Shown here: positions 25,353 through 30,418 of the stretch, in pieces | Numbering within the stretch: the first letter of the stretch is position 1 | Layout of the letters: the number at the start of each line of letters is the position of its first letter | Source: a virus | Reading direction: 5' to 3' (one strand) | Virus record (IMG/VR): IMGVR_UViG_2716884766_000001 | Coordinates: 32,001-96,000 of that record | Length of the DNA stretch: 64,000 nt | The notes under the pieces: model-generated | What the model was told of the DNA's origin: nothing | Database searches by the model: none | The model's input: only the letters and a program-made list of their open reading frames with translations | Translations under genes and position numbers: made by a program

Positions 25353-25411
25353 ATTGTAGTCTATTTTGTTGGAAAAAATAGCATTGATTGTGACACAAAT
25401 AATATTGTCAC
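25353..25411 (-). promoter_or_regulatory. Palindrome-promoter element, copy 1
   Basis: GTGACA-N10-TGTCAC at 25390-25411; minus-strand TACAAT at 25353-25358. Confidence 0.65.
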
Positions 25412-29295: not shown

Positions 29296-29502
29296 TTAAC
29301 ATTTAATTAAACTACGATTTATAGTCCCATGCTCTGAATAAGTAGAAGCATCGTCCAACAAAACAGTTAAGTTCTTGAAAGGACCATAGAATCTGTTAGA
29401 GTTATCATAACTCCAAAAGTGCCCCTTCCGCGTGTTCTTCGTAACTATGGTCACTGATCCCTTTGAGGTTGAGATCACTGTCTTCGATGCTTGATTCCAC
29501 AT
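29296..29502 (-). CDS. Hypothetical protein (start MWNQ; overlaps the upstream ORF)
   Basis: GHFWSY...FYGPFK motif; ~100-nt overlap with 29405-29728. Confidence 0.4.
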   Translation of the reverse strand: MWNQASKTVISTSKGSVTIVTKNTRKGHFWSYDNSNRFYGPFKNLTVLLDDASTYSEHGTINRSLIKC

Positions 29503-29728
29503 AGGATTTAATAAGTTTAACTGATGACCAGAGATGACGATAGATACAAACATTGACTTGTCTGTCTCTACTACTCTCTGTTCCCTCTATTGTTAAAGTG
29601 AAGTATGATGTTGGTGTATGCTTATGTAGATGATTAGGTGTTGCTATACAAATACAATTTACATAGCCTCTATACCCATCTACCTCTACTAAATCCCCTT
29701 GCTTGAACTGTAGTGGCATAGCATCCAT
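29405..29728 (-). CDS. Hypothetical protein (SH3/KOW-like N-terminus)
   Basis: FKQGDLVEVDGYRGYVNCIC; CTAAATA late-type motif ~15 nt upstream. Confidence 0.55.
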   Translation of the reverse strand: MDAMPLQFKQGDLVEVDGYRGYVNCICIATPNHLHKHTPTSYFTLTIEGTESSRDRQVNVCIYRHLWSSVKLIKSYVESSIEDSDLNLKGISDHSYEEHAEGALLEL

Positions 29729-29749
29729 ATCAATACTGACTCTATTTAG

Positions 29750-29818
29750 ATTGGGTGCGAGAAAACAAAACGGTCTGGATACACACAGTTAAAGTATCCA
29801 AGTGGTTTGTTTTCCCTG
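29750..29818 (-). ncRNA. Putative structured small RNA or 5' leader: a long hairpin starting at the predicted TSS
   Basis: GGGAAAACAAA pairs with UUUGUUUUCUC and UUGGAUAC pairs with GUAUCCAG; begins ~7 nt after a consensus -10 box. Confidence 0.6.
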
Positions 29819-29823
29819 AGTAT

Positions 29824-29852
29824 ATTATAGTCTGTTAGTGTGTATGTGTCAA
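29824..29852 (-). promoter_or_regulatory. Consensus sigma70 promoter
   Basis: Exact TTGACA-N17-TATAAT on the minus strand. Confidence 0.85.
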
Positions 29853-30418
29853 CCCATGTGTGATGGTTTATTATCTGTCCATGATAATGGTATATTGTCC
29901 ATGTTTACTGTTAAATTAAATGATAATACTGTTCTACGTTGTTCACTTGTGTGTGGATGTGTATAGTGGTGTAAGAAACTAGGAAATAGAATAAGGTCAC
30001 CTTCCTCTACCTCTGGTTCATATGTTAACTGCTCTCCTGTAATGAAGTGGTCGTATGGTGCGATGAAGTTAGTAGGTCTATGATACTTGGAGTTGTACTC
30101 AATGTATAATACTGCTGAGTATCCACCATGTCCATGATTATGTGTTGGATGATACATGTATGGGAGTGCTCGTTCATACCATGCTCTTACAATACGTGGA
30201 TCACAATTATAGTCATGTGCGAACCAACTTAGTTCATCATGTAGTATATCTGATATGTCATTGATATAATTATTGTCACCACGATAGTCAGAGAGTACTT
30301 GTTCGTCTCCCTGTACCATGTCCAGTGTGTCTATGTGTCTCAATAGCCTTTGTTTCTTCTGTTCCCACCAACTACACTTGTAGTGTGTCAGTGGTATATG
30401 AAACATGTTTATATCCAT
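29849..30418 (-). CDS. 2OG-Fe(II) oxygenase-like protein (TIGR02466-type)
   Basis: HPTHNH, YSAVLYI, EGDLILFPSFLHH and RTVLSFN. Confidence 0.8.
   Translation of the reverse strand: MDINMFHIPLTHYKCSWWEQKKQRLLRHIDTLDMVQGDEQVLSDYRGDNNYINDISDILHDELSWFAHDYNCDPRIVRAWYERALPYMYHPTHNHGHGGYSAVLYIEYNSKYHRPTNFIAPYDHFITGEQLTYEPEVEEGDLILFPSFLHHYTHPHTSEQRRTVLSFNLTVNMDNIPLSWTDNKPSHMG

Follow-up and report, generated by a model that had tools for sequence, protein, structure and literature searches.

A promoter-proximal hairpin conserved among T4-like cyanophages is a candidate cis-acting 5' leader of messenger RNAs

Here, we describe a real, conserved RNA element of T4-type phages, a promoter-proximal leader hairpin or regulatory cassette whose function we infer from its sequence. 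Judging by the copies collected, it forms a single-copy family across cyanomyovirus genera and is neither an orphan nor specific to one lineage. The family is apparently undescribed, being absent from Rfam 15 and from the searchable literature, in which the leader motif was not found in print. With about even confidence, we read the element as a cis-acting, 5'-terminal leader that would protect the end of the transcript and offer ribosomes a landing pad, with probable binding of a factor. The copy under study lies on the minus strand of a stretch of 64,000 nucleotides (the window), which covers positions 32,001-96,000 of the 189,106-bp phage contig C3. At 40% G+C, C3 differs from the other 31 contigs of its 1.6-Mb bin (27-37%), and a 426-aa helicase encoded near the element matched 419 records that belong only to Synechococcus, Prochlorococcus and marine cyanophages, with a best identity of 47-48%. 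The helicase matches and the G+C contrast together indicate that C3 is a T4-like cyanomyovirus co-binned with a low-GC host, and the helicase identity places it at a distance from every cultured isolate. C3 has the size of a complete T4-like cyanophage genome that was co-assembled or co-binned with its probable host and is not a prophage.

The promoter of the element is of the sigma-70 consensus, i.e., host, type. The exact TTGACA-N17-TATAAT noted in the original prediction is present on the minus strand at 29852-29824 and agrees with the consensus at 12 of 12 positions, with the -35 box at 29852-29847 and the -10 box at 29829-29824 separated by a 17-nt spacer. From this spacing, transcription is predicted to start at A29817, 7 nt past the -10 box. 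Exact promoters of the form TTGACA-N16-18-TATAAT occur five times in C3, all on the minus (coding) strand, against about 0.3 expected by a composition-based estimate (approximately 18-fold). The TGA stop codon of the upstream 189-aa gene is located inside the -35 hexamer, and the terminator scan found no terminator at this gene end in the window.

Directly behind A29817, the minus strand can form a 5'-terminal hairpin of 58 nt (29816-29759), which confirms the hairpin of about 65 nt that had been proposed at the expected start site. Its outer stem P1 pairs the 5' arm GGGAAAACAAAC (29816-29805) with the 3' arm GUUUUGUUUUCUC (29771-29759) and includes a G.U at pair 2 and one bulged U. A 3x3 internal loop, CAC opposite ACC, separates P1 from the 8-bp inner stem P2, in which UUGGAUAC (29801-29794) pairs with GUAUCCAG (29782-29775), and the hairpin is closed by an 11-nt apical loop, UUUAACUGUGU, that contains UUAACUGUG. 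The constant 7-nt spacing described below implies a start at A29817, in which case P1 would begin one nucleotide past it. The minus strand folds with a minimum free energy of -20.4 kcal/mol (z -3.6), and only one of 200 shuffled sequences folds equally well. The plus strand of the same region folds more weakly (z -1.85). As observed earlier, two G.U pairs are present in the transcribed orientation; one is the second pair of the outer stem, and the other opens the inner stem. The element was also correctly described as lacking an ORF; none of at least 30 aa is contained in it on the minus strand. A pairing of the apical loop with the downstream ORF was considered and rejected as chance, as it consists of a 6-nt match only and is missing in one of the closest relatives (L005).

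These relatives were found by searching IMG/VR with the 107-aa protein encoded downstream of the element, which yielded five contigs (L002-L006). Their outer stem and the next nine bases are identical to the window letter for letter. P2 is wholly different in sequence yet paired in the relatives (e.g., L002, L004 and L005), and the loop UUAACUGUG is kept in four of the five, while in L003 a short loop of the CUUCGU type caps the stem instead. In a second step, IMG/VR was scanned with DNA patterns made from the conserved parts; one pattern gave more than 119 loci, and a second added variants of the tail that follows the hairpin. By a strict descriptor, the complete unit is present at no fewer than 128 IMG/VR loci, representing at least 65 distinct sequences of 40-130 nt. 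Among isolates, P-HM1, P-HM2, MED4-213 and S-SSM7 carry the unit and P-SSM2 a divergent copy; P-HM1 and P-HM2 are grown on Prochlorococcus MED4 and S-SSM7 on Synechococcus WH8109. Megablast and blastn searches of the 1.2-kb region against phages gave no matches. A short-query search at permissive E-value found the tail in P-HM1, MED4-213 and S-SSM7, and a covariance model (R1), built from an alignment of the family (A2), added P-HM2 (58 bits) and the divergent P-SSM2 copy (31 bits).

The element occurs once per genome. C3, P-HM1, P-HM2, MED4-213 and S-SSM7 each contain one strong model match (55.9-66.3 bits) and P-SSM2 one weaker match. The tail pattern likewise occurs as a single copy in each of C3, P-HM1, MED4-213 and S-SSM7 and in a 105-kb UViG, and a 113-kb UViG has a single copy by both the tail pattern and the covariance model. 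Matches of the model in Syn9 and S-PM2 were unconvincing, and S-SZBM1 had none. A pattern scan of 596 Gb of cellular genomes returned 119 matches, which are at chance level except for one phage contig binned into a MAG, and the leader was thus not copied from host sequence. The original prediction could not assign the hairpin to a known cyanophage RNA family, and neither could we: across the whole window every Rfam 15 family, including manA, wcaG, PhotoRC-II and glnA, stayed below its gathering threshold, with only chance-level matches (E above 4) at 29600-29950. Rfam also had no match at the element in 15 related loci or for the long variants, and aragorn recognized no tRNA or tmRNA likeness in any variant. 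A full-length manA RNA (RF01745, 180 bits) is located about 1.2 kb upstream of one IMG/VR copy of the leader (L090:7762-7957).

P1 is the most constant part of the family. It comprises 12-13 bp, is A/U-rich and nearly invariant, has a G.U at pair 2 in 21 of 24 sequences (A-U in the rest), and its 3' arm always contains one more U than there are As opposite. Two alleles exist, AAAACAAA with UUUUGUUUU in the window and AAACAAAA with UUUUUGUUU in most copies, which differ by a C-G pair that is shifted by one position on both arms. In alignment A2, 94.2% of the P1 cells are paired compared with 82.5% in shuffled alignments, a value reached by none of 500 shuffles, and slid controls gave 42-76%. 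Four P1 pairs, including the shifted C-G pair, show compensatory (double) changes, and RNAalifold predicts the same outer stem unguided. In 49 of 56 variants among the matches listed, the sense strand folds into the more stable structure (mean difference from the antisense strand 2.8 kcal/mol), and G.U accounts for 10% of the pairs across variants. Strand bias and G.U pairs point to selection at the level of the RNA, or of the non-template strand that has the same sequence, rather than of a palindrome in the DNA.

The position of the stem relative to the promoter is equally constant. Among the matches listed, the -10 box, in the form of TATAAT, TATATT, TATTAT or similar hexamers, lies exactly 7 nt ahead of the stem in 62 of 65 unique variants, and an A directly precedes the stem in 42 of 54 variants. 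Sequence upstream of the -10 box is not conserved and promoter spacers differ between family members. Many IMG/VR copies have a G+C hairpin with a T run, the loop of which supplies the -35 box, and most of those listed have a GTGTCAC-like box that lies some 29 nt ahead of TATAAT and is often separated from it by a terminator hairpin; the window copy has a plain consensus -35 box instead of one borne by a terminator hairpin. Conservation has sharp edges, setting in at the predicted +1 and ending at the tail with no gradual decay. Onset of conservation at +1, covariation and strand bias together indicate that the RNA structure is functional and occupies the very beginning of the predicted transcript. 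The RNA-level structure put forward in the original prediction has therefore stood up to the collection of homologues and to their covariation.

Above P1, the family is highly variable. The apical part may be no more than a UACG or UUCG tetraloop or may comprise branched inserts of about 100 nt, and the smallest members, of 41 nt, consist of P1, one of these tetraloops and the tail, which implies that P1 and tail are the functional core. The 8-bp inner stem and loop of the window copy would, by comparison of the sequences, be an optional decoration common to its closest relatives; the apical loop of P-HM2, CUUAACUGU, is nearly the same as that of the window. Behind P1 follows the conserved single-stranded tail, which in the window is GCACCCAAU (29750-29758, minus strand). 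Most copies have GCACCCAAU or GCAUCCAAU, others variants such as GCACCUUAU, and the consensus is GCAYYYNAU. Endings such as CCCAAU, CCUUAU, CCCUAU and UUCAU show that the tail does vary, and its conservation may thus partly reflect composition.

A start codon follows the tail at a distance of mostly 9-19 nt, with a median of 16 nt in 71 sequence contexts among the matches listed. The spacer contains only 8% G and typically reads UAUCCCCUUAUUCCU or AUACAACCACCACAUUAUU; AGGAG is present in a few copies. This tight spacing, which is independent of the gene that follows, and the absence of a terminator behind the element indicate an mRNA leader and not a separate gene. They favor the cis-regulator that the original prediction had offered as one option and speak against its other option of an abundant stand-alone RNA serving as a decoy or antitoxin mimic. 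The other four consensus promoters of C3 are followed by an ATG about 14-32 nt from the -10 box without a 5' hairpin, so that tail and spacer in the window resemble an ordinary leader with a hairpin put in front.

In the window, a 21-nt spacer (29729-29749, minus strand) leads to an ORF of 107 aa (29405-29728, minus strand; phrog_522), the gene putatively served by the leader. The window tail possibly pairs weakly with the start-codon region, which is not general across the contexts whose spacers were inspected. The spacer includes the heptamer CTAAATA (29749-29743), described earlier as a late-type promoter directly after the hairpin. The heptamer is present as stated; its late-promoter label is less secure, since CTAAATA is not enriched on the minus strand of C3 (26 seen, about 29 expected). 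The spacer including CTAAATA is identical in L002-L004, and in L005 and L006 it is swapped for one that contains AATAAATA in the same place, a substitution compatible with a late promoter before the phrog_522 gene. CTAAATA is not part of the leader element, as other family members lack it. An ORF of 85 aa (29296-29553, minus strand) overlaps the 107-aa ORF by about 150 nt in a different frame; of the two, only the 107-aa ORF has relatives.

The genes that follow the leader belong to at least 12 unrelated families and encode proteins of 45 to 1,039 aa. In P-HM2, no spacer separates the tail from the annotated start of PHM2_048, and this gene was assigned to expression class 'Mid (B)' in both light and dark infections. 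Host-like promoters reportedly drive middle genes in T4-like cyanophages, with a novel element used for early genes, and the class of PHM2_048 would fit this division. Upstream of the window copy, ORF 29849-30418 (189 aa) encodes a 2OG-Fe(II) oxygenase (Pfam PF13759). It is the sole recurring neighbor common to the window, P-HM2 and S-SSM7, in which it is located directly, two genes and three genes upstream of the leader, respectively, and the same ORF family is found upstream in 22 of 84 IMG/VR loci among the matches listed. A DNA methylase, DUF7717 and small ORFs are neighbors common to 40-50 of these 84 loci; they are absent beside the window copy and were rejected as a conserved partner of the leader. 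In one hybrid contig (L114), a different leader type has taken the place of the 5' arm, and the two are joined within a common insert module. Judging from this contig, recombination at or inside the leader unit has clearly happened.

In the mechanism that we propose, host RNA polymerase would start at A29817 and the first 58 nt of the transcript would fold into the hairpin, with P1 as its near-invariant base and a top that could be freely replaced. A stem only one base from the 5' end might shield the transcript against 5'-end-dependent decay by RNase E or RNase J, and the closed hairpin might stop the leader from base-pairing to the coding sequence downstream, whichever gene that is. Between hairpin and gene, the constant, unpaired stretch rich in pyrimidines and A would then serve as a ribosome landing pad independent of a Shine-Dalgarno sequence, and the fixed sequence, G.U pair and bulged U could be recognized by a putative sequence-specific binder, either a protein or an RNase. 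As such a unit would work ahead of any gene, it would also mark the genome slot at which downstream genes are exchanged. 5'-terminal stem-loops are known to stabilize bacterial and phage mRNAs, such as ompA and those with the T7 phi10 leader. Translation in cyanobacteria often begins in an S1-dependent way that needs no Shine-Dalgarno sequence, and G-poor, pyrimidine/A-rich leaders support such initiation there. A cis-acting stabilizer, insulator and translation platform agrees best with this background; the start site and the effects on stability and translation are predictions. Two features fit less well. Neither a fixed sequence nor a single copy is needed for a generic stabilizer, which suggests a more specific role, and the elaborate apical modules of the long variants are not explained by a leader, which speaks against this reading.

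The fixed sequence, the G.U pair with the bulge and the single copy point to a specific binder, and a role in trans or in docking a factor is therefore kept as the main rival of the cis-acting leader. As a trans-acting small RNA, hairpin and tail would be released by cleavage of the mRNA within the A/U-rich spacer, or remain stable while the rest of the transcript decays, and would titrate a protein or act on targets in host or phage. We regard this as unlikely. One gene-like copy per genome would suit a small RNA, as would a sequence that is conserved independently of the following gene and more strongly than neighboring proteins (the helicase has 47% identity to the nearest isolates), and the A/U-rich stretch after the tail might provide an RNase E site. 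However, no terminator follows the element, for which the terminator scan made no call, and the tight spacing to the next start codon is unexpected for an independent gene. The tail, as the putative seed of such an RNA, varies, and the complement of its 9-mer shows no enrichment in the contigs of the co-binned host, where it occurs 7 times against an estimate of about 11, so that no host rRNA, tRNA or other RNA target stands out. It is likewise tentative to propose that the invariant stem with its G.U and bulged U and the GCAY tail constitute a docking site for a factor. In that case the unit would constitute a single-copy regulatory RNA gene in cyanomyoviruses and represent a new class of phage riboregulators, either released from the 5' end of the mRNA to act in trans or used as an 'expression slot' for accessory genes and RNA modules.

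A role at the DNA level is a still more doubtful explanation. The unit could be a recombination seam, like the promoter-early stem-loop (PeSL) cassettes of T4-type phages (Arbiol et al. 2010, PMC2839356; Comeau et al. 2014, PMC4122927) or an integron expression slot, or a promoter-primed replication origin, to which a single copy per genome would be suited. The many different downstream genes and the hybrid L114 with its junction inside the common insert module are consistent with a seam, and most of the IMG/VR copies listed have a terminator hairpin that overlaps the promoter, as in PeSLs (PMC4122927). Yet the sharp edges of conservation at transcript start and tail, the G.U pairs and sense-strand bias, and the preservation of pairing by compensatory changes are signals of an RNA and disfavor a purely DNA-level role; recombination is better taken as a consequence than as the cause of conservation. 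It is very improbable that the hairpin is a promoter-proximal attenuator, also named in the original prediction, which would end most transcripts at its U-rich 3' arm and thereby yield a short RNA and regulated read-through: the 3' arm does hold the U run UUUUGUUUU and, in the window, an 8-bp stem stands 4 nt ahead of it, but within the stem these U residues pair with a run of A, the minimal members are A/U-rich stems with UACG or UUCG caps and have no G+C-rich hairpin ahead of their U run, the terminator consensus scan does not recognize the site, and termination would leave the conserved CUC-GCAY after the U run unexplained.

PeSLs are the nearest described kind of element. Both combine a strong, near-consensus sigma-70-like promoter, here with 12 of 12 matches, with a stem-loop in a T4-like phage, and both are found among small variable genes at gene-exchange seams, as illustrated here by the at least 12 families of downstream genes and the hybrid L114. 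The likeness extends to the terminator hairpin with the -35 box in its loop that many IMG/VR copies of the leader have. Two defining features of PeSLs nevertheless fail, the position of the stem-loop and the copy number. The PeSL stem-loop is a terminator just upstream of the promoter (PMC4122927), whereas the conserved hairpin described here comes after the -10 box, where the transcript begins. PeSLs are present in many copies per genome that cluster in hyperplastic regions, in contrast to the one copy here, and their stems are conserved in type only, while the stem of the leader is fixed in sequence across genera. Outside the window, C3 contains an exact consensus promoter at 141212-141184 (minus strand) with a GGGGGA...TCCCC hairpin, the T run of which spans the -35 box and spacer, as in a compact terminator-promoter composite of the PeSL type.

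In the leaders of ompA and T7 phi10 (gene 10), as predicted for the element, a very strong promoter yields a transcript whose hairpin starts no more than one or two bases from the 5' end, an unstructured A/U-rich stretch then leads up to the start codon, and the arrangement works ahead of different genes. These leaders share no sequence relationship with the element, and their hairpins tolerate sequence change, whereas the element keeps its sequence, G.U and bulged U; a role as stabilizer is putative here. T4 phages employ translational operators such as the pseudoknot in the gene 32 leader, the gp43 operator hairpin and RegA sites. Like these, the element is a structured or specific RNA site in a 5' leader that could be recognized by a phage protein. 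T4 operators, however, belong to particular genes and serve autoregulation, while the downstream gene of the element differs between phages and its binder is putative. The Yfr2 (Cyano-1) small RNAs of cyanobacteria reportedly carry a GGAAACA motif in unpaired loops. Most members of the leader family begin with GGGAAACA, which contains this heptamer, and the host organisms are the same. In the leader, the heptamer is base-paired in the stem, in contrast to the unpaired loops of Yfr2, and no Rfam family, hence no Cyano-1 model, scored at the element even at E up to 10. The link to Yfr2 is a resemblance only.

T4-like cyanophages rank with the ocean's most abundant viruses, and to our knowledge almost nothing is known of their regulation at the RNA level beyond a few Rfam motifs. 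The element stands out by an unusual combination of compactness (41 nt at minimum), clear covariation and a single copy per genome, and its conservation spans phage genera whose proteins share less than 50% identity. If it acts only as a stabilizing leader, it would still be of use as an expression part taken from nature for marine picocyanobacteria, whose engineering is difficult. Binding of a specific factor would add a new regulatory axis to cyanophage infection, and the docking-site reading, if true, would establish a new class of phage riboregulators common to phages of Prochlorococcus and Synechococcus.

The apical insert modules of the long variants start with GGC and end with GUAAGUCC. 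Copies are found away from the leader as well, where another stem encloses them, where they adjoin the P-SSM2 leader on its 3' side, or where a different promoter and palindrome precede them, at L133:1201-1241 (MED4-213 75716-75756), L259:1671-1725 (P-SSM2), L066:6273-6326, L087:5444-5497 and L114:1481-1536. The dispersed modules had no match in Rfam and none in C3, and are possibly mobile or functional RNA modules. Between 24,700 and 34,700 of the window, the minus strand has an imperfect palindrome, GTGTGCCAC-N8-GTGTCC, about 28-33 nt upstream of a -10 box and without a -35 box, with examples at 25390, 25832, 26713, 27488, 29149, 31701 and 34695. The GTGTCAC-like box ahead of most IMG/VR copies of the leader is arranged in the same way. 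This layout is probably a phage-specific promoter type and may correspond to the 'novel early element' reported by Doron et al. 2016.
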